Source: Alphaproteobacteria bacterium
GTDB lineage: Bacteria > Pseudomonadota > Alphaproteobacteria > Rickettsiales > 21-14-0-20-44-7
Assembly: GCA_043757405.1 (NCBI GenBank)
Contig: JAYVPI010000001.1
Coordinates: 211,437-275,436 of the forward strand
Length of the DNA stretch: 64,000 bases
Reading direction: 5' to 3'
The translations under genes and the position numbers were made by a program. Position 1 is the first letter of the stretch; each line of letters begins with the position of its first letter. This document shows, piece after piece, positions 20,925 to 61,566 of the stretch. Below the pieces are notes generated by a model, which saw only the letters and a list, made by a program, of their open reading frames with translations, did not search any database and had not been told where the DNA came from.

Positions 20925-21145
20925 GTCATTGCGAGCTCTTGCGCGGTGTTGTATGGTAAGACTCCATAACATAAATAAGGACTGTCATCCTCGAACCGAA
21001 GGTTCGGGGATCCAGGGTTAAAGCCACCGGCGGAGTGTTTGATCCTGGATCCCCGCCCAAGTGGGCGAGGATGACGGTGTCTGTTTTTGGTAATCAAATA
21101 TCAATAACTTACCGAGCCATGCAACAATGCCGCTCTTGCAATGAC
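20925..21145. repeat. Composite nested palindromic element: outer GTCATTGCGAG...CTTGCAATGAC, with inner GTCATCC...GGATGAC at 20984-21075
   Basis: The outer arms are imperfect inverted repeats and the inner element has two hairpin modules. The reverse complement closely matches 23849-24119. Confidence 0.8.
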
Positions 21146-22263: not shown

Positions 22264-22348
22264 TGGTGCGGTTAAAAAGACTCGAACTTTCACCCCGTGA
22301 AGGACAGCGACCTCAACGCTGCGCGTCTACCAATTCCGCCATAACCGC
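22264..22348 (-). tRNA. tRNA-Leu (anticodon GAG), class II, CCA encoded
   Basis: Manual fold: acceptor GCGGTTA/TAACCGC; anticodon stem CAGCG/CGCTG with loop TTGAGGT; long variable arm; T-loop TTCGAGT. The 3' end is ACCA. Confidence 0.85.
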
Positions 22349-22395
22349 ACACTGGAAGCGGGTTTAGCAGGGGGCAGAAAAAGAATCAACTGATT

Positions 22396-22455
22396 TCGTT
22401 TATCGTTGATCGTTGATCGTAAATTGTATAACGGTAAACGATCAACGATAAACGA
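22396..22455. repeat. TCGTTGATCG-type palindromic element (copy 1)
   Basis: TCGTTTATCGTTGATCGTT and AACGATCAACGATAAACGA are perfect 19-bp arms around AAATTGTATA. The element is related to 46953-47024. Confidence 0.7.
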
Positions 22456-22459
22456 GCTC

Positions 22460-23071
22460 ATGCAAATCATAAGATCAAACGAGCTGGTAGATTATCCTTC
22501 GGCGCTTTCCTTCATGGAAAACCGGGTGGACGCGATTATTGAGGGCACGGCGGAAAACACGCTTTGGCTGCTGGAACATCCGCCACTATACACTTCAGGT
22601 ACCTCAGCCAAAATCTCGGATTTATTGCAGCCGGAATTTCCAGTTTACAAGGCCGGGCGTGGCGGGGAATATACTTATCACGGGCCAGGGCAGCGCGTGG
22701 TTTATGTTATGCGGCGGCTGGAGAAACATGACTTGCGGGCCTATGTGCGGGATTTGGAACAGTGGATAATCAATACGCTGGCGCATTTTGGGATCATGGG
22801 TGAGCGGCGTGAGGGGCGGATTGGAATTTGGGTGGCGGCGAATGGCAGCGAAGCAAAAATCGCAGCACTGGGAATCCGCGTGCGGAAATGGGTGGCTTAT
22901 CATGGGATCGCGATCAACGTGAAACCGGATTTGCGCCATTTTGGCGGAATTGTTCCCTGTGGGATTTCAGAATTTGGGGTGACATCGTTTGAGAAACTGG
23001 GAGTGAAAGTTTCGCTGAATGAAGTGGATGAAGTTTTGATTGAGGAATTCATAAAATTATTTAAAAACTAA
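22460..23071 (+). CDS. lipB: Octanoyltransferase LipB
   Basis: Contains [11 protein letters not shown] and [17 protein letters not shown]. The start is set at MQIIRSNE; the upstream part of the track ORF runs through the palindrome. Confidence 0.9.
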
Positions 23072-23072
23072 C

Positions 23073-23119
23073 GTCATCCTGAGCATAGCGAAGGATCTTT
23101 CGCTTGCGCTCAAGATGAC
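23073..23119. repeat. 48-bp-type palindromic element (GTCATYCTGAGCGCAAGCGAAGGATC... family), intergenic copy
   Basis: GTCATCCTGAGCATAGCGAAGGATCTTTCGCTTGCGCTCAAGATGAC begins 2 nt after the lipB stop. Confidence 0.8.
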
Positions 23120-23133
23120 GTATAGATGGAATT

Positions 23134-23848: not shown

Positions 23849-24119
23849 GTCATTGTGGGCTTAGCCAGCGTTGTTGCATGGCTCGGAAAGTTATTGATAT
23901 TTGGTCACCAAAAACAGACGCCGTCATCCTCGCCCGCTTGGGCGGGGATCCAGGGTCGAACACTCCGTAGGTGTCTGTAGCCCTGGATCCCCGAACCTTC
24001 GGTTCGAGGATGACAGTCTTTATTCGTGCTATGGAATCTTAACCATGCAACAACGCCGCTTAAAGCCGTAATCAATCTCCATGCTTGAGTTGAGATTGCG
24101 GCTCGTAGGCCGCAATGAC
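23849..24119. repeat. Composite nested palindromic element, inverted copy of 20925-21145 (inner element 23923-24014)
   Basis: Aligns base for base, with few differences, to the reverse complement of 20925-21145. It carries an extra hairpin, ATTGCGGCTCGTAGGCCGCAAT. Confidence 0.8.
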
Positions 24120-26007: not shown

Positions 26008-26730
26008 ATGAAACTTAATGGAATAATAAATACACCTACATCTGATATGCACAGAAGATTTTTTACTGAAGAGGATATATGCAAGTTAAGCGCTGACTTA
26101 GCTAAATATATACCTAGATTTTTATTTGAAGAAGCTTTTGGGGAGGATGATAGCAAACATATGATCACCAGCTTACCCTCAGGAGCCAGGATCATTATGC
26201 CTAAAAATCCCCGAACATTAGATCGACTATATGATGCACTATTAGAGTTTGGTCTTATCTATGGTATGGCTCGAAAGGAACATCATATTGAAATTGACGC
26301 TGCGGAAGCTAGGGAATGTTTGGACTATGCGCATAAGTTAGAAAAATACATTGGCACAAAACTAGAAGCCGCATTACATAATACAACTTACTACACGTGC
26401 TTTAGTCAAATGGTGGAATCGGGTTTTGATGTAGTTGAAGATAAAATTGATCCTATAATCCAATGGAGACCGCTCGAAACCGATATAACATTATTTTTTC
26501 CGCCAATGGATGATCAATTAATAGGTTATGCGTCAATACCTGCAATTGATAATTTTACACGTGCGACACGATCACTCAGAGATGACGTTTGTGTTAGAGA
26601 GCATATAATAGAAAAAACGGCAGTTATTATACGTATGGATTCGGAAAAGTTGCTTACTAGATTAGGTATTAATCCTAATGCAGTACAATTTATAAACGTT
26701 GCTAAGGGTATTGAAAGAAGCGCAGATTAG
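26008..26730 (+). CDS. Hypothetical protein (240 aa)
   Basis: ORF in an AT-rich spacer between uvrC and mutL. I recognise no family. Confidence 0.5.
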   Translation: MKLNGIINTPTSDMHRRFFTEEDICKLSADLAKYIPRFLFEEAFGEDDSKHMITSLPSGARIIMPKNPRTLDRLYDALLEFGLIYGMARKEHHIEIDAAEARECLDYAHKLEKYIGTKLEAALHNTTYYTCFSQMVESGFDVVEDKIDPIIQWRPLETDITLFFPPMDDQLIGYASIPAIDNFTRATRSLRDDVCVREHIIEKTAVIIRMDSEKLLTRLGINPNAVQFINVAKGIERSAD

Positions 26731-28490
26731 CCTTTTCGCCCAAACAGCTTCTCTACATCACTCAACTTTAATTCCACATATGTCGGCCGGCCGTGGTTGC
26801 ATTGGCCGGAGTGTGGCGTGGCTTCCATTTGGCGGAGCATTTCGTCCATTTCCTGGATGCTGAGTTTGCGGCCAGCGCGGATGGAATTGTGGCAGGCGGC
26901 GGTTTCCAATACATGCTCAAAAGCTTGCATCAGGCTCAAATCGGAGCCATGTTCGATGATGTCGTCGGCGATGTCTTTTAATAATTCGGAGGCGGAATGT
27001 TTGGTGAGTAAAGTAGGGATTTGCCGAACTTCGATTTCTCCCGCGCCAAATTTCTCAACTTCAAAGCCGAATTTGCTCAACACAAGTTTGAGGTTGAGGA
27101 TGATGTCTAATTGTTTTTCATTCAAGCGTATAATTTCGGGAACTAGCAAAGGCTGTTTTTGCAGACGGTTTTCGTCAATCTGGCTTTTGTAATTCTCATA
27201 AACCAGGCGCTCATGCGCTGCGTGTTGATCGACAATTACGATTGAATTTGCGGTTTCGGCTATAATATAAGTCGCATGCAATTGCGCCTTGGCGTGGCCG
27301 AGCGGATACCCTTCCCCAGCCCCTTCCTTGAGGGAAGAGGCTTCAATTATCTCCTCCTCCCTCAGGAAGGAGGTCGGGTGGAGGGTAAACGCCACGGCCT
27401 CTTCGCGCAGCGGCAGATAATTTGTTTGCGGCGCGTTGTAATAAGCGTTCTTATAAGCCGCTCCTGCATTATTGCGCGACATAGAGTGCAACGCGAAATC
27501 GGCAATCGTCGTCGAGGCTTTGTGGCCAGCAGAGCTGATGGCGCCGCGCAGGGCGGAAATTAATAAGCCGCTCATCATGCGGCCATCACGAAAACGGACT
27601 TCAGATTTGGCGGGGTGGACGTTGACATCAACTTCGGCGCTGGGAATTGTGATGAATAGCGCCAAAGCCGGAAAGCGGCCGCCGCCGAGGAAATCGGCAT
27701 AGGCGGCGCGGATCGCCCCTTGGAGGACTTTGTCTTTTACCGGACGGTTATTGACAAAGATATACTGGCTCTCGCTGGTGCGGCGGTTATAGGTTGGGAT
27801 GCCTGCGAAACCGGTGAGTTTTATGTCTCCGCGTATGGCGTCAATGGCGACGGAGTTGTCTCCGAAGTCATCACCGATAATATCAGATATTCTTTGCACT
27901 GGCGATGCGGGTAGGAAATGTAGTTTTTCTTTGCCGTCAACTTCAACTCTAAACGCAGTTTCAGGATTGGCCATAGCGATTTTGCGGATGATATCCAGGC
28001 ACTGCGATTTTTCGCTATCATCGGTTTTTAGAAATTTCAGGCGTGCGGGAGTGGCGAAGAATAAGTCACGCACATCAATTTTAGTGCCAGCGTGCGTTGG
28101 GGTTGGCTGTATCTCGCTAACATCGCCGCCGATAACTTCGATTTTCGCACCGCGGCTGCTGATTTTCAACTTTGCTACGGAGCCGATTGCGGGCAATGCC
28201 TCACCCCGGAAGCCGAAAAAGCGAATATTGAAAAGGTCATCGTCCAGTAATTTGGAAGTGGCGTGGCGTTGCACTGCCAGTTTCAATTCCTCGGCATTCA
28301 TGCCTATGCCATCGTCGGAAATGCTGATTAAGTTTTTTCCGCCAGCTTCGATTTTTATTTCGATATTTTTTGCACCGGCATCGAGGGAGTTTTCCACCAG
28401 CTCTTTAACTGCGGAACTTGGACGCTCAAGCACCTCACCGGCGGCGATGCGGTTGATTATATTTTGCGGGAGAAGGCGGATTATGGTCAT
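26727..28490 (-). CDS. mutL: DNA mismatch repair protein MutL
   Basis: Contains INRIAAGEVLERPSSAVKELVENSLDAGA. Length is 587 aa. Confidence 0.95.
   Translation of the reverse strand: MTIIRLLPQNIINRIAAGEVLERPSSAVKELVENSLDAGAKNIEIKIEAGGKNLISISDDGIGMNAEELKLAVQRHATSKLLDDDLFNIRFFGFRGEALPAIGSVAKLKISSRGAKIEVIGGDVSEIQPTPTHAGTKIDVRDLFFATPARLKFLKTDDSEKSQCLDIIRKIAMANPETAFRVEVDGKEKLHFLPASPVQRISDIIGDDFGDNSVAIDAIRGDIKLTGFAGIPTYNRRTSESQYIFVNNRPVKDKVLQGAIRAAYADFLGGGRFPALALFITIPSAEVDVNVHPAKSEVRFRDGRMMSGLLISALRGAISSAGHKASTTIADFALHSMSRNNAGAAYKNAYYNAPQTNYLPLREEAVAFTLHPTSFLREEEIIEASSLKEGAGEGYPLGHAKAQLHATYIIAETANSIVIVDQHAAHERLVYENYKSQIDENRLQKQPLLVPEIIRLNEKQLDIILNLKLVLSKFGFEVEKFGAGEIEVRQIPTLLTKHSASELLKDIADDIIEHGSDLSLMQAFEHVLETAACHNSIRAGRKLSIQEMDEMLRQMEATPHSGQCNHGRPTYVELKLSDVEKLFGRKG
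27301..27385. repeat. CCTCC/GGAGG double-hairpin element inserted in frame in the mutL linker
   Basis: The reverse complement aligns with 57667-57747 in thiC. It encodes ...PTSFLREEEIIEASSLKEGAGEGYP... Confidence 0.7.
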
Positions 28491-34683: not shown

Positions 34684-34699
34684 TATCCCTATGCTACAT

Positions 34700-34763
34700 G
34701 TCATCCTGCGACTTGATCGCAGGATCTCTTAGAGAAGACCCTATGGTCAAGCCATAGGATGAC
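34700..34763. repeat. GTCATCC...GGATGAC palindromic element, intergenic
   Basis: GTCATCCTGCGACTTGATCGCAGGATC...CCTATGGTCAAGCCATAGGATGAC. The left module is identical to the one in dnaE (42660). Confidence 0.85.
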
Positions 34764-34769
34764 GTATAT

Positions 34770-40110: not shown

Positions 40111-40125
40111 GGCCACATGATATAC

Positions 40126-40173
40126 GTCATCTTGAGCGCAAGCGAAAGATCTTTCGCTCGCGCTCAAGATGAC
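40126..40173. repeat. 48-bp palindromic element at the era/dnaE junction
   Basis: GTCATCTTGAGCGCAAGCGAAAGA|TCTTTCGCTCGCGCTCAAGATGAC has one arm mismatch. It contains the dnaE stop codon (40164-40166). Confidence 0.85.
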
Positions 40174-43100
40174 GATGGAAGGCAAATGCCCTCGATGAAC
40201 ATTATCTGCTCTTTTAAATTATCATTCACCGCATAATATCCCGGCAGTTCCAGCACCACTTCGCTAACGCCCGTTTGCGCTTTTAATATTACGCGGTTTT
40301 TGAACAACATGCCGCTTTCATATATATTCGCAGCTAATAAATTTCTCAGTTTCGCCACCGCTTCCAGGTTATCTGCAACAAAATTCAAGTCCTGGACTTT
40401 TATAAAACGCAGGAAATTTGCCTTAATTGCCGCTTGCAATTCTTCTATCCTCTCTGCCAACAAACGCACACCACCTTCATCTTTCTTCGCCTCGGCCGTA
40501 ATCAATATCGGCGTATTACTCGCCAACATTTCCGCCGCGCGGGTGATTAGGTCATCTTCGTAGAGAACAATTTCAAACACCCCCATCCCATCCGAAACTT
40601 TCGCAAACGCAAACCGCCCACGCTTGCCGGAACGAATATTCAAGGTTGCCAGCACACCAGCTAAACGAACTTTGGTCGAAGCGCTCTTCAGGCGTTCTTC
40701 GATTTGTATTGATGGCAACACGCCCATTTCATCGAGGATATGCTGATAATCATTCAATGGATGGTCTGATAAATAAAACCCAAATGCCTCATATTCCGCC
40801 TTCAGACGCTCATTGGAATCCCAATCGCTGGCCTGTACTAACGAGGGTTTTGGCGCTTCGCCAATCGTTCCTTCGCCAAATAAGCTGATTTGCGAAGAGT
40901 CAATTTCTTCCTGGCAAATATTGTTATACCGGCTGAGCATCTCCGCCGATTCCAGGATCTGCCGGCGGTTGCAAGCCATGCCGTCAAACGCCCCTGCCTT
41001 CGCCAAACCTTCCAAATGCTTCTTATTAATCACCTTAACATCGCAGCGTTTGCAAAAATCAAACACATCGGCGAACTTCCCGTTCTCCTTCCTCTGCGCC
41101 GCCATTGCTTTCGCCGCTTCGATACCAACGCCTTTTAATGCACCTAGCGCATAACGGATTGAGCCGTTTTCAGGTTGGAAATAAGCCTCTGAGGAGTTGA
41201 TATCAGGAGACAAAACTTTGATACCGCGTTTGCTGGCTTCGTGTTTATAAAAGCTGAGTTTGTCGGTGTCGGCAATATCGAGGTTCATACAGGCGGTCAA
41301 AAACTCCACCGGGTAATGGCAGCTCAAATATGCTGTCTGGTAGGCAATCACCGAATAAGCCACCGCGTGGGATTTGTTGAAACCGTAACCGGCGAATTTG
41401 GCGATCAAATCAAAAATATCCGCCGCCAGTTTTTTATTGATCCCCTTCTCCGCCGCACCTTCGGCAAACATCAGGCGTTGTTCATCCATCTCCGCCTTAA
41501 TCTTCTTGCCCATCGCCCGCCGCAGCAAATCCGCTTTGCCAAGCGAATATCCGGCCAATATTTGCGCGGATTGCATAACCTGTTCTTGATAAACCAAAAT
41601 TCCATATGTCTCATTCAACAAATCCGACAATGAAATATGCGGATATTGCACCTCTTCCTTGCCGTGTTTCCGCGCATTATAACTCGGAATATTTTCCATC
41701 GGGCCGGGGCGGCAAAGCGAAGTTAGTGCCACGATATCCTCAAATTTATCAGGGCGCATTTTGCGAATTGCGTCTTTCACCAAAGTTGTATCCAACTGGA
41801 ATACACCCGCCGTTTCACCTTTGGAAAGCATATGGAAAATCTTCTCATCATCCAGCGGTAGGTTGTGGATATCAACTTTATTCCCCCCAGCCTCAACAAA
41901 CTGCCGCGCCTTATCCACCAGCGTCAATGTACGCAAACCGAGGAAATCGAACTTCACCAACCCGGCCGTTTCCGCATCTTTCATCGAATATTGCGAAACC
42001 GGCATTTCTGAGCGCGGGTCTTTATATAACGGCACCAACTCCACCAATGGCCGGTCAGCAATCAATATTCCCGCCGCATGTGTAGAAGCATGGCGATTCA
42101 ATCCTTCGAGTTTCAGCGCCACATTCAACAATCGTCCGATATTCTCATCATCACGTTGCAACCGCCGCAGTTCAGGATCCATATCTATCGCTTTGGAAAG
42201 CGTCACCGGGTCAATTGGATTGAACGGAATCATTTTAGAAATCCTATCAACTTCCATGTAGGGAATTTGCATCACCCGCCCGACATCGCGCAGCACCGCC
42301 CGCGCTTGTAGTTTTCCGAAAGTGATAATCTGGCAGACACGGTCGTGGCCATATTTATTACGCACATAATCGATCACCTCATCGCGCCGCTCCTGGCAGA
42401 AATCGATATCAAAATCCGGCATTGATACACGTTCAGGATTCAAGAACCGTTCAAACAGCAAGCCAAACCGCAACGGGTCAACATCGGTGATTTGTAGCGC
42501 CCAGGCTACTAAGGAACCTGCACCCGAACCCCGTCCCGGCCCCACCGGAATTCCCTGGCCCTTCGCCCATTTGATGAAGTCGGATACGATTAAGAAATAG
42601 CCCGGAAATTTCATCTTGATAATGACATCAAGCTCGAATTCCAGCCTAGTCCAATATTCGTCATCCTGCGACTTGATCGCAGGATCTTGTGAGTGCATCT
42701 CAGGAGGTCCTGCGGTCAAGCCGCAGGATGACGTTTTAGTATTTAAGCGCTCCTGCAAACCCTCACGCGCCTGCACCCGTAACTCATCTTCCTGCGTCCT
42801 GCCAGCCTCAGTTGGATAATCCGGCAACATCGGCTGACGTCCTTCTGCTTTAACCGAGCAACGTTTCGCAAGCTGCACCGTATTGGCAATCGCCTCCGGA
42901 ATATCCGCAAAAATCGCTATCATTTCCTCAGCTGATTTAAAATAGAATTGGTCGTTATATTTCTTGCGGTTTTCATCAACCAAATATTTGCCCTCGGCGA
43001 TACATATCAGCGCGTCATGGGCCTCGGACATATCCTGGGTTGAATAGAAGCAATTATTAGTGGCGATCAGTGGGAGATTATATTTATAGGCTATATCTAT

Positions 43101-44378: not shown

Positions 44379-44396
44379 AACTCCATCCTTCAACAG

Positions 44397-44476
44397 CCGT
44401 CACCCCGCACTTGTTGCGGGGTCTATTCACAAGTTCATGCCCTGTAATGGATGCCGCAACAAGTGCGGGGTGACGG
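44397..44476. repeat. GTCACCCCG...CGGGGTGAC palindromic element between lolC/E and lolD
   Basis: Perfect 23-bp inverted arms CCGTCACCCCGCACTTGTTGCGG / CCGCAACAAGTGCGGGGTGACGG flank 34 bp. Confidence 0.9.
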
Positions 44477-44485
44477 TTTTGGTGG

Positions 44486-46952: not shown

Positions 46953-47024
46953 TCGTTCGTTGTTAATCGTTGATCGTTCATCGCTTGTAATTCGATAAAC
47001 GATTAACGATGAACGATCAACGAA
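46953..47024. repeat. TCGTTGATCG-type palindromic element (copy 2)
   Basis: TCGTTGATCGTTCATCG...CGATGAACGATCAACGA with a TTGTAA centre, between the proS and rpmG starts. Confidence 0.65.
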
Positions 47025-47089
47025 AAAGCTTGACTTTGCTGTGGGCGATGGCTAAAAACCCTGACAAATCAAAGAATCGGATAAGAAAA

Positions 47090-49654: not shown

Positions 49655-50377
49655 CTATTTTTTATCGCAAACCGCCTCAAAAAATATCGCCCGCGTGGTA
49701 TTGGCGAGGTTTTTCTTCTGATACTTAGTTTCAATATGGTCAATAGGTTGTGTTTGCCAATCTGCCCTGGAACCTGCCAACCAACGAAATTTATCGTGTT
49801 CCAGCAATTCTCTGGCGATCCATTTAGCATAATCTTCGTGATCCGTGGCAATTCTGAGCCTGGCATCCCGCTTCATAATTCGTGCAAGCAAGTCTAAAGT
49901 TTGCTTCGATATTATCCGGCGTTTATTCTGCCGTTTCTTTGGCCACGGATCGGGGAACAGTATAAATACACGATCAATAACTCCCTCCCACACGTCATCC
50001 TGCGGCTCGACCGCAGGATCTCCTATGGTCAAGCCATATGGTGACGTAATTAATTGACGAAAATCTCCGGCATAGACTCGGATATTCTTAAGCTCATTCT
50101 CTTCAATCCCACGCAATAATTTTACAGTTCCGTTTACAAACGGCTCGCAGCCAATAAAGCCAATTTTGGGATTTGCCAGCGCCTGATGCAATAAATGACC
50201 ACCATCACCAAAGCCGATCTCCAGCCAGATTTCTTTGAAATCAAACTTAGGAAAGCCGTCAACTTTCACTTTGGGCAAAACTTCCGCCAACAGCTTTTTG
50301 GAATTATCACGCAGCTTGCGCGACTTGGTACGACCAAAGCTTTGCAGGTATTTAGGCGACTGCTTTGCGTAATTCAT
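49655..50377 (-). CDS. trmB: tRNA (guanine46-N7)-methyltransferase TrmB
   Basis: Contains [14 protein letters not shown]. The start is set at ATG 50377 and overlaps the metK 3' end by 26 nt. The track's 50443 start is less likely. Confidence 0.85.
49994..50045. repeat. GTCATCC...GGTGAC element inserted in frame in trmB
   Basis: GTCATCCTGCGGCTCGACCGCAGGATCTCCTATGGTCAAGCCATATGGTGAC encodes [17 protein letters not shown]. Confidence 0.8.
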
Positions 50378-51548: not shown

Positions 51549-51575
51549 TTGGATACCTTGAATATCTGTTATATC

Positions 51576-51659
51576 GTCACCCCGGACTCGTTCCGGGGTC
51601 TGGCATTAGACACAATCTCTTGCCTCAACTTCCGGATCGCGGAACCAGTCCGCGATGAC
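51576..51659. repeat. GTCACCCCGG...CGCGATGAC two-hairpin element in the metK leader
   Basis: The hairpins are CCCCGGACTCGTTCCGGGG and ATCGCGGAACCAGTCCGCGAT. The architecture is that of the superfamily. Confidence 0.7.
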
Positions 51660-52194: not shown

Positions 52195-53760
52195 TTAAAC
52201 TTTTCTTCTAAAAATTAATAAAAACTCCACACTGATTATGATTAATCCAAATATTATCCAATCACCGTATAATGAATATATAGTTACCGAATTATTTAAT
52301 TCAAGATCGGCGGATAAAAATCCATGCTGATTATAAGCCAATGATTTTACAATCCGCCCATTCTTATCAATAATCGCCGAAACTCCTGTATTAGCCGCCC
52401 GCAACATTGGCACCCCTTGCTCAATTGAACGCATTTGCGACATCGCCAGATGTTGATACGGCCCCGTCGAATTTCCAAACCACCCATCATTAGTAACATT
52501 AACCAGCAAATCCGGCTTGACTGCCGAATGGGAAAATTCCGGAAATGTGACTTCATAACAAATCAACGGCAAAAACCCCGGCCCGTTTTTATATTTCATC
52601 ACCTCACGCTTGCCCCCTTGCGAAAAATCCAGCGCTCCAGGCGTAATTTTTTCCAGCGGCAAATAATTCCGGAACGGCACAAACTCCCCAAACGGCACAA
52701 GGTGAATTTTGTCATAAGACTGATAAATCCCATCTTTGCTGATAGCATAAAGCGTGTTCCAAACCTGGTAATTACTTTTGCTTTCCCCGCTAGAGCGCAA
52801 CCCGCCAGTAACCAACACCCCATTATCCGGCGCCACACGCCTCAACAAATCCGTCACTGGCTGCTGCCGGTTCAAATAATAAGGCGCTCCCGATTCCGGC
52901 CACAAAACTATATCCGCGTTTTTATAATCCAGCGTCTGCATGAAATCTATATTCTCAATAAACTGCTTCTTCGCCGCCAACGGCTCCCACTTCAACGATT
53001 GCTCAACATTGGGTTGGAAGATTATGACTTTGGCAGTTTTATCTAAATCACCCTCACCTTTGCCAAAACATAACAGGCCATACAGAATTATAATCCCTAC
53101 AAGAGCAACAACCCCAACAAGTGATTTCTTATTTTTATAATAAAGCGGCAATAGCGAAATAATTATCACTACATAGCTCAACAAATAAACTCCGCCCGCT
53201 GAAGCAAGCTGTGAAAAAATAGTTGAAACTAGTGCCGTATATCCAATCAAATTCCATGGAAACCCCGTGAACAACCATGTGCGGATTAATTCAAAAACCA
53301 CCCATAATATAGAGAAAAGGATAATATCATTCCAATTCCCGCATTTGTCATCCTCGGGCTTGACCCGAGGGTCCAGCGATGAGTATGCCGCATGGCTGGA
53401 TCCCAGCCTTCGCTGGGATGACCTAAATGCGAGAGCAAACAACCCAATATAAATCGCCAGACCAAATGGAATCCCGCATACCGCAAACGGAATCAGCCAC
53501 GCAAATTTTTCTGCATCAACAAGTAGTGAGTTAGCAATCCAATATAAGCCAAACACAAAATACCCAAAGCCGAATGCCCAGCCGATTTTGAATGCCTGTA
53601 TCTTATTTTCCGCCGCAGCAAGAATTTTAAAAAATATTGGGAATGAGATAAATAAAACCGGAAAGATATAAAACGGCGCCAATGCCAAATCCGCCAATCC
53701 GCCAGCGGCAATTAGCGTTAAATACTTCAGCTTTCCTTGCAAAAAAAATTTTATCCCCAT
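52195..53760 (-). CDS. lnt: Apolipoprotein N-acyltransferase
   Basis: An N-terminal polytopic region and a CN-hydrolase domain with the LICYEVTFPE catalytic Cys context are present. Confidence 0.9.
   Translation of the reverse strand: MGIKFFLQGKLKYLTLIAAGGLADLALAPFYIFPVLFISFPIFFKILAAAENKIQAFKIGWAFGFGYFVFGLYWIANSLLVDAEKFAWLIPFAVCGIPFGLAIYIGLFALAFRSSQRRLGSSHAAYSSLDPRVKPEDDKCGNWNDIILFSILWVVFELIRTWLFTGFPWNLIGYTALVSTIFSQLASAGGVYLLSYVVIIISLLPLYYKNKKSLVGVVALVGIIILYGLLCFGKGEGDLDKTAKVIIFQPNVEQSLKWEPLAAKKQFIENIDFMQTLDYKNADIVLWPESGAPYYLNRQQPVTDLLRRVAPDNGVLVTGGLRSSGESKSNYQVWNTLYAISKDGIYQSYDKIHLVPFGEFVPFRNYLPLEKITPGALDFSQGGKREVMKYKNGPGFLPLICYEVTFPEFSHSAVKPDLLVNVTNDGWFGNSTGPYQHLAMSQMRSIEQGVPMLRAANTGVSAIIDKNGRIVKSLAYNQHGFLSADLELNNSVTIYSLYGDWIIFGLIIISVEFLLIFRRKV
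53347..53422. repeat. GTCATCC...GGGATGAC element inserted in frame in lnt
   Basis: GTCATCCTCGGGCTTGACCCGAGG...GATCCCAGCCTTCGCTGGGATGAC encodes GSSHAAYSSLDPRVKPEDD. Confidence 0.8.
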
Positions 53761-53763
53761 AAC

Positions 53764-53834
53764 GTCATCCTGCGGCTTGACCGCAGGAACTCCTCATACA
53801 CGCACCAGACCCTGCAATCAAGTAGCAGGGTGAC
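53764..53834. repeat. GTCATCC...GGGTGAC element at the lnt start / bioF end
   Basis: GTCATCCTGCGGCTTGACCGCAGG...CCCTGCAATCAAGTAGCAGGGTGAC. It contains the bioF stop (53818-53820) and lies 3 nt upstream of the lnt ATG. Confidence 0.8.
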
Positions 53835-54951
53835 ACATATTTAGTGTTTTAAGCCAATCCGCCAATAAATCAATTTCACTTTTCGTATGCGCCGCCGTCA
53901 CCGAAATGCGGAGCCGCGCCGTCCCCTTAGGCACCGTTGGCGGCCGCATCGCCGAGACTAGTATTTTATTATCCTTAAGCAACTTCTCCGCCGCTAGCGC
54001 CTTTTCCTCGCTGCCCAAAATAATAGGAACGATACTTGAAGTTCCGTCATTACGAGCGAAGCGCGGCAATGACGATTTAAGATATTCCGTATTCTTCAAT
54101 ACTTTCAAATATAGCTCATCCCGCCCAGCAATCTCCAGCGCCTTTATCGCCGCACCAACCGCGAATGGCGGCAGCCCAGTTGAATAAATCAATGATCGCG
54201 CCTTAGTCTCCAAATACCGAATCAAAGCCCGAGAACCACAAACATACCCCCCATAACTCCCCAGCGCCTTTGACATTGTCCCGATATAAATGTGAGCTTT
54301 AAGTTTTGATTTTTGATAAATGGAGTGTGCGCCGTCAACTATTAGTGTGCAGTTGTTTTTATCGGCGATTTCCTTCAGCTCATCAACCGGAGCAAAATCC
54401 CCATCCATTGAAAAGATCTCTTCGGTGATGATGAGCCGCCTGCGCTTATCGTCATTCTGAGCGCAAGCGAAGGATCCTTCGCTTGCGCTCAGAATGACGT
54501 CTTTCTCCAAACACTTCTTCAAGTCAGCAACATCATTATGCTTAAACCGCACCAGCTTTGCGCCGGAGAGCTTTATTGCGTCGATTATAGAAGCGTGGAC
54601 TAATTTATCGGCATAAACCACTTCCGGCTCCAGCGCTGTGATAACGCCAAGATTTGCCAGATATCCGCTGCCAAATACCGTGGCGGCCTCATAACCTTTA
54701 TAAGCCGCGATTTTTTCAGCAAATTCCCCAAATAATGGATGATTTCCGCCCGCAATCCTGCTTGCCCCCGCTCCTGCGCCATATTTTTCCGCAGCTTCTA
54801 TTCCGGCAATAATCACTTCCGGATGGCGGCTTAAACCTAAATAATCATTTGATGTAAAATTGATAAATCCTTCCCCCCACTCACCCTTGGGCGTTCGCAG
54901 GAGATTTTTATCCTTCAAATCATTTAGTTTTTGCTGTAATAGACTATCCAT
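53818..54951 (-). CDS. bioF: 8-amino-7-oxononanoate synthase
   Basis: SNDYLGL and the PLP-Lys context [12 protein letters not shown] are present. The start is set at ATG 54951 (MDSLLQQKL...); the track's 55011 start is TTG. Confidence 0.85.
54451..54498. repeat. Perfect 48-bp palindrome inserted in frame in bioF
   Basis: GTCATTCTGAGCGCAAGCGAAGGA|TCCTTCGCTTGCGCTCAGAATGAC has 24+24 arms with no mismatch. It encodes [16 protein letters not shown]. Confidence 0.9.
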
Positions 54952-55900
54952 GAACATCCGACACGATTGGAAACAGTCTGAAGTTATAGATTTATTCGCC
55001 CTGCCTTTCAACGACCTAATATTTCAGGCCGCCAGCGTGCACCGCGCCAATCATGATCCAAACGCGGTTCAAATCTCGACATTACTCTCCATAAAAACCG
55101 GCGGCTGCGCGGAAGATTGTAAATATTGCCCGCAATCCGCATCATATGACACCCCCGTAAAAGCCGAAAAACTCACCACAGTTGAACATGTCCGCTCCGA
55201 GGCCACAAAAGCCAAAGCCGCCGGAGCTTCCCGCTTTTGCATGGGCGCCGCCTGGCGTTCGCCTAAGGATCGGGATTTGGATAATGTTATTGAGATGGTG
55301 AAGGTGGTGAAGGATCTGGGGTTGGAGTCGTGCTGCACATTGGGCATGTTGACGAAACCACAAGCCGAGAAATTGAAGGATGCGGGGCTGGATTATTACA
55401 ACCACAACATCGATACTTCCCCGGAATATTACGGAAATATAATCACCACCCGCACCTTCCAAGACCGCCTCGATACACTCGCGCATGTGCGCGAGGCCGG
55501 AATGAAAACCTGCTGCGGCGGCATAGTAGGAATGGGCGAATCAGTGGCCGACCGCGCCGGTATGCTGCTGACATTGGCGAATTTGCCTGAACACCCGGAA
55601 TCCGTCCCGATTAATCTGCTAGTCCCAGTCGAAGGCACCCCATTCGGCAATCGGCAATCGGCAATCGGCAATCTCGACTTCGTCCGCATGATCGCCGTGG
55701 CGCGGATATTAATGCCAAAATCCGCAATACGCCTGTCAGCAGGCCGCGAAGAAATGTCAGACGAAATGCAGGCGTTATGTTTCCTAGCGGGTGCAAATTC
55801 GATTTTTTATGGCGAAAAATTATTAACCACTCCGAATCCGGAAGCCCTTGAAGATAAGAAGCTTTTTGACCGACTGGGTCTTAAAGCTATGGCAGTTTAA
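54950..55900 (+). CDS. bioB: Biotin synthase
   Basis: The radical-SAM motif [11 protein letters not shown] is present. The start is the first ATG, at 54950 ([16 protein letters not shown]). Confidence 0.95.
55645..55673 (+). repeat. Heptanucleotide tandem repeat (CGGCAAT)x4 +1 inside bioB
   Basis: The run is perfect: cggcaat cggcaat cggcaat cggcaat c. It encodes GNRQSAIGN. Confidence 0.95.
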
Positions 55901-55934: not shown

Positions 55935-59082
<3,148 letters not shown>

Positions 59083-61442: not shown

Positions 61443-61536
61443 GTCACCCCGTCCCCAGCCTTCGCTGGGGCAAGCCTTTGTGACGGGGTCAAGCGGTTCT
61501 TGTAAACGCCAGACCCCGCAACAAGTGCGGGGTGAC
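61443..61536. repeat. Mosaic GTCACCCC...GGGGTGAC element
   Basis: The right arm CCGCAACAAGTGCGGGGTGACGG (61516-61538) is identical to 44454-44476. The internal CCCAGCCTTCGCTGGG is identical to the module in lnt (53402-53417). Confidence 0.8.
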
Positions 61537-61566
61537 GGATAATATTTGTTATTTTAAATGTATCCA

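Follow-up and report, generated by a model that had tools for sequence, protein, structure and literature searches.

The repeat described here, which lies within the coding sequence (CDS) of mutL in an uncultured alphaproteobacterium, is real selfish DNA. The DNA analysed (the window) is a 64,000-nt stretch of contig JAYVPI010000001.1, and a second copy of the repeat is found in the thiC gene of the same window. Very likely, the mutL site holds an old copy, by now partly decayed, of a palindromic repeat that measures about 76-79 nt, is non-autonomous and is specific to this lineage. In at least two related genomes of uncultured alphaproteobacteria the family has reached housekeeping genes unrelated to one another.

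The host gene mutL (26727-28490, minus strand; 587 residues) was identified by homologue searches and Pfam. The repeat occupies 27308-27386 on the minus strand, with ends set by the conserved termini of the family, and is read in frame as MutL residues 369-395. Its peptide is TLHPTSFLREEEIIEASSLKEGAGEG, the last base of the copy being the first base of the Tyr395 codon, and the MutL stretch from the repeat region reads TSFLREEEIIEASSLK. On the coding strand the copy begins with a C-rich left arm (27374-27386, ACCCTCCACCCGA) that is degenerate relative to the consensus AACCCTCCTCCAA and fails the triplex-motif test described below. A first hairpin (27353-27373, CCTCCTTCC-TGA-GGGAGGAGG) and a central spacer (27340-27352, AGATAATTGAAGC), which differs between copies, lead to the right half (27310-27340, CCTCTTCC-CTCAA-GGAAGGGG-CT-GGGGAAGG), a potential intrastrand triplex motif. 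All three blocks of the right half carry a matched TT/AA/AA change relative to the family consensus. The copy is called decayed because its left half no longer passes the triplex-motif test; in profile searches it scores about 36 bits, as against 74-88 bits for intact copies.

The second host, thiC (57205-59082, plus strand; 625 residues), was likewise identified by homologue searches and Pfam. Its near-consensus copy, at 57667-57742 on the plus strand, is read in frame as ThiC residues 155-179. The left half contains a triplex motif on the opposite strand (57668-57700, minus; CCTCCTCCCT-G-AGGGAGGAGG-TT-GGAGGAGGGT), and the right half contains one on the coding strand (57712-57741, plus; CCCCTCCC-TCA-GGGAGGGG-TTG-GGGGCGGG). 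The start of thiC overlaps the end of bioA by 14 nt (57205-57218), and no thiamine pyrophosphate (TPP) riboswitch reaches the Rfam gathering score anywhere in the window.

An earlier note, made from the letters of the window, had proposed that the two copies share both frame and orientation relative to their host genes. The sequences it quoted are present, and its coordinates (27301-27385 and 57667-57747) are essentially right. Both copies are stop-free within long open reading frames (ORFs) and are read in frame, and the reading phase is common to them over the first hairpin and the 3' arm. The phases differ at the left arm (ACC CTC CAC in mutL, AAC CCT CCT in thiC) and at the second hairpin (SSLKEG in mutL, SPLPQGG in thiC), because of small indels, and the claim of a common frame therefore stands in part. 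The claim of a common orientation is softened in that the mutL copy scores 36.6 and 35.3 bits on its two strands; its orientation is weakly determined because the element is a nearly perfect palindrome and the copy has decayed.

The similarity of the two copies, 79% mean column identity by pairwise alignment, is significant. With the thiC copy alone as query, nhmmer recovers the mutL copy at E=5e-7, and a profile built from three copies of another genome recovers thiC at E=4e-22 and mutL at E=2e-10. The CCTCCYTSAGGGAGG core, allowing at most 2 mismatches, has seven matches on both strands of the window, all of them in the mutL and thiC elements, where 0.10 would be expected from shuffles. The other-genome profile gives no further match below E=50 in the window. 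The other palindromic families of the window have mixed-sequence stems, and the earlier suggestion that this family is unrelated to them is borne out. The mutL copy and its surroundings, 3,764 bp in all, are 100% identical in an independent Logan assembly (SRR23617274), which makes an assembly artefact unlikely.

The repeat is laid out as a C-rich arm, a hairpin, a variable spacer, a second hairpin and a G-rich arm, with the ends AACCCTCC...GGAGGGTT. Eight copies from two genomes give the consensus AACCCTCCTCCAA-CCTCCTCCCTSAGGGAGGAGG-(about 11 nt of variable spacer)-CCCCTCCCTSAGGGAGGGG-WTGGGGGAGGGTT. End to end the copies measure 76-79 nt, or 110-111 nt in three-hairpin forms, and these lengths are not multiples of three. 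Since the two halves are inverted, the entire imperfect palindrome can be folded as one long hairpin in the minimum-energy fold of the single-stranded DNA; the computed energies are -26.2 kcal/mol (z=-4.2) for the thiC copy and -20.5 kcal/mol (z=-2.7) for the mutL copy. In each half the outer G-rich arm mirrors the G-rich stem (CCTCCTCCCT/AGGGAGGAGG/GGAGGAGGGT and CCCCTCCCT/AGGGAGGGG/GGGGAGGGT). A pyrimidine stem, a purine stem and a purine arm in mirror repeat make up each half, which on its sequence can be classed as a potential intrastrand triplex motif of the BoxC/PIT/TM type. The earlier description of a double hairpin is thus correct as far as the hairpins go and incomplete in that each hairpin, with its flanking arm, forms a three-block mirror motif.

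Triplex motifs were sought with a finder of our own that applies published criteria (PMC4666352): stems of at least 8 nt, loops of 1-6 nt and at most one mismatch. The 64-kb window has exactly three: two in the thiC copy, one per half, and one in the right half of the mutL copy. None turned up in 200 dinucleotide-preserving shuffles. Stem and arm co-vary across four subfamilies, one of which is represented by the mutL right half (CCTCTTCC/GGAAGGGG/GGGGAAGG). The repeat is rich in C/T or in G/A, so that the sole possible stop codon is TGA, from the CTGAGG loop. Three to four of the six frames are open, and survival in coding DNA would be correspondingly easy. In the resulting peptides the residues P, S, G, E, R and L are abundant.

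Comparison with orthologues indicates what the mutL site looked like before the repeat arrived. The repeat is absent from all 21 aligned MutL orthologues, including the MutL (P0005, 68% identical) of the metagenome-assembled genome (MAG) that hosts the rest of the family. In the two closest relatives, whose MutL proteins are 83% and 73% identical, native linker sequence fills the corresponding position, with 51 bp for MPQAYEAIPEAAADTQT and 48 bp for SPQAYDERPQITETID. This native segment, which is kept in all 21 orthologues, is bounded exactly by GCGTTT (Ala-Phe) and TATCC (Tyr-Pro), and between the same boundaries the window has the repeat instead. Of the native interdomain linker, the final 16-17 residues are missing, and the repeat stands in their place. 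Because relatives hold the native segment and the window holds only the repeat, the element appears to have replaced the end of the linker, with a net gain of 9 codons. The in-frame element that the earlier note had placed in the mutL linker does lie there, between the DNA_mis_repair and MutL_C domains; rather than a plain insertion, it would be a replacement of 48-51 bp. No MutL or ThiC orthologue examined holds the segment. Neither finding that would have refuted the earlier note is borne out, these being the segment in MutL linkers of unrelated taxa, and a lack of further copies coupled with insignificant similarity to thiC.

Other sites of the family have a similar appearance. In ThiC the repeat sits at a break of the alignment to the Caulobacter enzyme (3EPM, chain residues 162-167), and the closest relative's ThiC, which is 87% identical, has AAAQAAP in place of the window's M-[repeat]-S. 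In bioB of the MAG, AANEK is seemingly replaced by F-[repeat]. BioB and BioF of the window and of a relative (L016) are empty where those of the MAG are filled by the present repeat (the CCTCC family). The BioF loop is empty in L016, occupied by the CCTCC family in the MAG, and occupied by a different palindromic family in the window; it has taken two independent hits on one permissive loop.

The protein context is consistent with tolerance. In MutL, Pfam places HATPase first, then DNA_mis_repair at residues 201-318 and MutL_C at 402-543, with the repeat between the last two. Residues 324-394, which comprise the entire linker with the repeat included, have AlphaFold2 confidence (pLDDT) values below 50, as would be expected of a disordered region; ThiC residues 153-189 are also modelled at pLDDT <50. 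The endonuclease motifs of MutL look intact by eye, and both hosts retain their conserved motifs. The peptide is most likely a tolerated passenger, probably neutral, that now serves as linker in MutL.

An exact-pattern scan of one genome per species, covering 185,579 species, returned four loci, all in GCA_964545245.1, a MAG deposited as "uncultured Rickettsiales bacterium". Profile searches of its loci added copies, giving six further copies at five sites, all with conserved termini, and eight in total in the two genomes. The proposal of a repeat family, originally based on the two copies of the window, is thereby confirmed. In the MAG the in-frame hosts are PrmA, a class I aminoacyl-tRNA synthetase (IleRS, by our reading of its sequence), BioB, BioF and a CysG-like gene, in which two copies bracket an ORF of the DUF559 family. 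One diverged relative of the repeat in the MAG loci is intergenic. Copies occur in both orientations, and the left end is read in three codon phases (NPPP..., EPSP... and TL...), which rules out codon-phase-specific insertion. The location of all copies within CDS was considered and dropped as evidence of targeting, since 8/8 is not significant by itself at a coding density of about 90%. At the junctions of seven copies there is no target-site duplication of 2 bp or more.

The family appears to be narrow and patchy, since relatives hold no copies, a metagenome scan gave only loose matches and a viral scan gave none. In 85 kb from the MAG and three relatives there are no copies, no triplex motifs and no DUF559 genes. 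The metagenome scan for the double-hairpin core yielded seven loci with GC-rich motifs of loose similarity and no family members, and the scan of viral contigs for the repeat yielded no matches. Searches of plasmids by blastn gave partial matches to intergenic motifs of Sphingomonas and Novosphingobium, which pointed to the BoxC/PIT class; the intergenic hairpin-plus-arm motifs of Sphingomonas share the G-arm GATGGGGGAGGG. At the protein level, a census of a database of 5.8 billion proteins with two element peptides produced ten word-sharing candidates, none of which scored, the peptide probably being too low in complexity. A HMMER search of 1.84 billion representatives with a 33-residue ThiC segment found none at E up to 0.001, a search of low power, given the short query and the rarity of the insert among 50% cluster representatives. 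Rfam assigns nothing in the window at gathering thresholds except one tRNA, and the elements attract sub-threshold matches to generic microRNA hairpins.

The repeat is a new family within known kinds and not a member of any named family, the Rickettsia palindromic elements (RPEs) having been compared by behaviour, size and composition. RPEs are in-frame palindromes found in many housekeeping genes (PMC10969869, summarising Ogata 2000, 2002). The present repeat resembles them in being a non-autonomous palindrome that lies in frame in unrelated alphaproteobacterial housekeeping genes, at fold-compatible sites and with no known transposase. The hosts MutL, ThiC, PrmA, the aminoacyl-tRNA synthetase, BioB, BioF and the CysG-like protein, all hit in frame, fit the RPE pattern, the MutL and ThiC sites (pLDDT <50) being permissive ones. 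The likeness noted is one of behaviour. At 76-79 nt the repeat is about half the size of RPEs, which measure roughly 100-150 nt, and the exact-pattern scan of 185,579 species met it in a single MAG, which is not Rickettsia. Unlike RPEs, it is GC-rich in a genome of 47% GC and is built of purine/pyrimidine triplex motifs, and its junctions delete host codons. Its host, moreover, is not Rickettsia: it has thiamine and biotin synthesis genes, and its MutL is about 50% identical to those of named Rickettsiales MAGs.

In architecture the closest counterparts are the BoxC/PIT/TM repeats, which are abundant in more than 260 proteobacterial genomes and sometimes form inverted pairs (5 pairs in E. coli; PMC4666352). 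The shared features are the three blocks (C-rich stem, complementary G-rich stem and, beyond a loop of 2-3 nt, a G-rich arm in mirror repeat), together with inverted pairs, a wide distribution of the motif, variable loops and the lack of a known mobility gene. The E. coli consensus (TMECO, CCCTCNCCC-N3-6-GGGNGAGGG-N3-GGGNGAGGG) is not matched, the stems here being CCCCTCCC/GGGAGGGG and CCTCCTCCC/GGGAGGAGG. The repeat is thus, by its sequence, of the same class but not of the E. coli family, and its triplex is a predicted one. The E. coli K-12 motif is "always intergenic", with no mobility function nearby (Holder et al. 2015, PMC4666352). In contrast, the copies considered here, two in the window and six canonical ones in the MAG, all lie within CDS, in frame, and the inverted pair, with its fixed ends, behaves as a spreading unit.

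The repeat shares with REPINs an arrangement of two inverted hairpin units that form one long hairpin, the presence of many copies and the absence of target-site duplications. REPINs are extragenic and accompany a gene for a REP-associated tyrosine transposase (RAYT) flanked by REPs. The present copies are intragenic, and no Y1 transposase or RAYT is found in the 19 window ORFs scanned. Bacterial MITEs (miniature transposable elements with inverted repeats) that make in-frame fusions include ERIC, Correia/NEMIS and the Coxiella QMITE (PMC10969869, PMC5896051). With MITEs the repeat has in common its terminal inverted repeats, small size (76-111 nt), lack of a transposase ORF, eight copies and in-frame intragenic location. 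MITEs normally come with a target-site duplication and a related insertion sequence (IS), and here neither was found, at the junctions of seven copies in the one case and in the window and fetched loci in the other. The only gene flanked by repeat arms in the window or the fetched MAG loci is the DUF559 gene, whose arms face inward.

The ragged, replacing junctions suggest a possible course of events. The copy would have come in through break and repair, or through copying in, with ragged junctions, and not by cut-and-paste transposition. Only frame-restoring events in permissive loops would have survived selection, and the stop-poor composition of the repeat would make such events common. The trans-acting enzyme would be encoded outside the window, the best candidate being a DUF559 (Vsr-like) nuclease. 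Several points weigh against this account and against the reading of the mutL site as a decayed mobile repeat. There is no mobilising gene in the window, as judged by tblastn for DUF559 and by ten scanned ORFs without a transposase. About 100 kb of sequence from five relatives is free of copies, as is an unselected 21.8 kb of the MAG. The census is limited in size and biased, consisting of two copies in 64 kb and of loci chosen for carrying a copy. The apparent replacement is read from relatives only 73-87% identical, in variable loops, and the ancestral loop of thiC or bioB may have been shorter. The three-block symmetry kept in the decayed mutL copy could mean that the DNA structure is under constraint.

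Other explanations were weighed. If the segment were a functional module, it could act through its linker peptide, through a DNA or RNA structure at which replication, transcription or translation pauses, or as a fragile site that toggles mutL and with it the mutation rate. Inactivation of MutL gives rise to mutators. The symmetry of the decayed mutL copy, with its matched TT/AA/AA change, is in keeping with a functional role, as is the finding that polymerases are blocked by such motifs in vitro and that local instability has been linked to them (PMC4666352). The module is nevertheless quite improbable. The same repeat occurs in enzymes without a common function (ThiC, PrmA, BioB, BioF and the aminoacyl-tRNA synthetase) and is absent from all orthologues examined; the left half in mutL has lost its motif, the peptide region is of low model confidence, and its sequence varies with the reading phase between copies. 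Earlier work, moreover, saw no in vivo effect of PIT elements (summarised in PMC4666352). That the likeness arose by chance in a native linker of low complexity, or through a chimera or another artefact of assembly, might be suggested by the variable, low-complexity nature of MutL linkers and by the metagenomic origin of the contig. We regard this explanation as refuted and give it almost no credence, in view of the E value of 2e-10 with the profile from another genome, the shuffles devoid of triplex motifs, the 21 orthologues without the repeat and the identical independent assembly.

Alternatively, a classical transposase encoded elsewhere might be responsible, the repeat being a MITE moved by an IS transposase or a REPIN moved by a REP-associated tyrosine transposase. 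The terminal inverted repeats, the small size, the several copies and the lack of an ORF of its own all suit such a model, and the two inverted units match REPIN architecture. Yet seven copies show no target-site duplication at their junctions, host sequence is deleted where relatives allow a comparison, no transposase is present in the ten window ORFs scanned, and the fetched loci hold no cognate IS with AACCCTCC...GGAGGGTT ends. REPs and REPINs are extragenic, whereas these copies are intragenic. No mobility genes were found near the related E. coli motifs (Holder et al., PMC4666352). Movement by a classical transposase is therefore improbable.

A further model assigns the movement to a nuclease, and it is compatible with the view of the element as a decayed, non-autonomous palindromic repeat, since it concerns how the element moves rather than what it is. 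The repeat would be the non-autonomous partner of a DUF559 nuclease (Vsr/EDxHD clade of the PD-(D/E)XK enzymes) and would spread by homing-like break repair, the nuclease recognising or cutting the hairpin-plus-arm motif or its target site. Break repair of this kind would account for junctions that are ragged and replace host sequence, and for the absence of target-site duplications. We hold this model tentatively. The CysG-like gene of the MAG GCA_964545245.1 (L003, 421-1428, minus strand) contains, in frame and with no intervening stop, a full-length ORF of the DUF559 family (Pfam E=1e-37; closest structure 3HRL, E=1e-25) set between inverted element arms. The arms that bracket it are perfect, 32 nt long and identical to the right half of solo elements. 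A second complete DUF559 ORF of the same MAG (L002, 7538-8000) continues in frame, again with no intervening stop, from the N-terminal domain of TrpD. An intein around the in-frame DUF559 ORFs was considered and dropped, no splicing motifs being visible by eye.

The association extends to other taxa. Nine DUF559 loci were compared, one from the MAG and eight from plasmid-collection records (alpha-, beta- and gammaproteobacteria, Deinococcus and a cyanobacterium). Six of the nine (two from Sphingomonas and those of Azospirillum, E. coli ycjD, Deinococcus and the MAG) have a triplex motif no more than 40 nt from an end of the DUF559 gene, and the remaining three (Sinorhizobium, Picosynechococcus and Neisseria) have other GC-hairpin repeats nearby. 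A 50-kb control region of Sphingomonas has four motifs, two of which flank the DUF559 gene, one on either side. In Deinococcus the order is arm-hairpin-[DUF559]-hairpin-arm, as in a solo element but with the gene where the spacer would be. The DUF559 clade also includes a proven intron homing endonuclease (PMC3424549; PMC9403480). Several of these genes are wedged in conserved operons, between sufB and sufC (L018) and between yqeY and dnaG (L020) in Sphingomonas, at ycjD (L024) in E. coli and between paaD and paaZ (L025) in Deinococcus, and are directly flanked by BoxC/PIT-type motifs; in E. coli a motif of the TMECO consensus follows ycjD by 13 nt.

On the other side, DUF559 is found neither in the window (by tblastn) nor in the 85 kb of the MAG and relatives, and triplex motifs greatly outnumber DUF559 genes. 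The association may run in reverse, triplex motifs being reported hot spots of rearrangement (PMC4666352) at which selfish genes may land. The arms at the MAG and Sphingomonas loci point towards the DUF559 gene, not away from it, and the solo element is therefore not a simple internal-deletion derivative. Derivation of the solo element by internal deletion from the MAG unit was rejected on account of this inside-out arm topology; the Deinococcus locus has the topology that such a derivation would require. The association is drawn by sequence from nine loci, with a formal control in one genome, and no paper was found in the literature that links DUF559 to these repeats. A broader proposal, which we consider rather unlikely, is that DUF559 nucleases are the missing trans-acting partner of the widespread BoxC/PIT triplex-motif repeats and that the mutL and thiC copies are footprints of a homing-like system. 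In the present alphaproteobacterial lineage the nuclease gene and a gene-less double-motif derivative may then both spread by break repair, sometimes landing in frame inside essential genes. The origin and spread of BoxC/PIT repeats have, to our knowledge, been unexplained since the 1990s.

The window contains several other repeat families. The first palindromic family, ACGTCATCCTGCGG...CCGCAGGATGACGT, has an arm-hairpin-spacer-hairpin-arm layout too; three copies are in frame in CDS (42657-42737, 49990-50050 and 56996-57066, in DnaE, TrmB and BioA) and two are intergenic (34698-34768 and 53760-53838). Its 24-residue insertion in BioA is confirmed by comparison with an orthologue of about 90% identity that does not have it. 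A second family, CGTCATTCTGAGCGCAAGCGAAGGATC..., whose peptide ends in (D/N)D, is found in CDS at 40123-40176 and 54448-54501 and between genes at 23070-23124. It is in frame at the N-terminus of Era and in BioF, where the copy occupies the loop that carries the CCTCC-family element in the MAG. The in-frame copies of these two families in DnaE, TrmB, BioA, Era and BioF show that RPE-like behaviour is shared by at least two more families of the window.

A hairpin family, CCGTCACCCCGCACTTGTTGCGGGGT, lies mostly between genes (44396-44478, 51573-51625 and 61488-61540), and palindromic arrays of TCGTTGATCG-like units are located in two intergenic regions (22391-22460 and 46953-47027). Two inverted copies of a 174-nt repeat (20957-21130 and 23868-24041), 90% complementary, each hold a CGGGGATCCAGGG...CCCTGGATCCCCG palindrome; they flank RlmJ-like, tRNA (22267-22348), LipB-like and YaaA genes, not a transposase. 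In BioB a perfect heptamer tandem repeat, (TCGGCAA) x 4.3 at 55644-55673, encodes GNRQSAIGN in the same loop that carries the CCTCC-family element in the MAG, and a change in copy number of its 7-nt unit would shift the frame. In the MAG, a gene of the 23S_rRNA_IVP/bAvd family (L027, 16791-17168) is flanked by two genes for carboxylase subunits, of which one has biotin carboxylase and biotinyl domains and the other a carboxyltransferase domain; it may be another small selfish insert.

Coding palindromes, first described as peculiar to Rickettsia, are thus present in a free-living-like lineage of uncultured alphaproteobacteria. At least three unrelated repeat families share one 64-kb window, and one of them is of the BoxC/PIT class, which had been described only outside genes. 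A disordered MutL linker swapped for selfish DNA and a BioF loop hit by two families are natural examples that bear on the tolerance of proteins to insertion. If the link between DUF559 and triplex motifs were general, it would provide a testable candidate for the movement of long-known orphan repeats.

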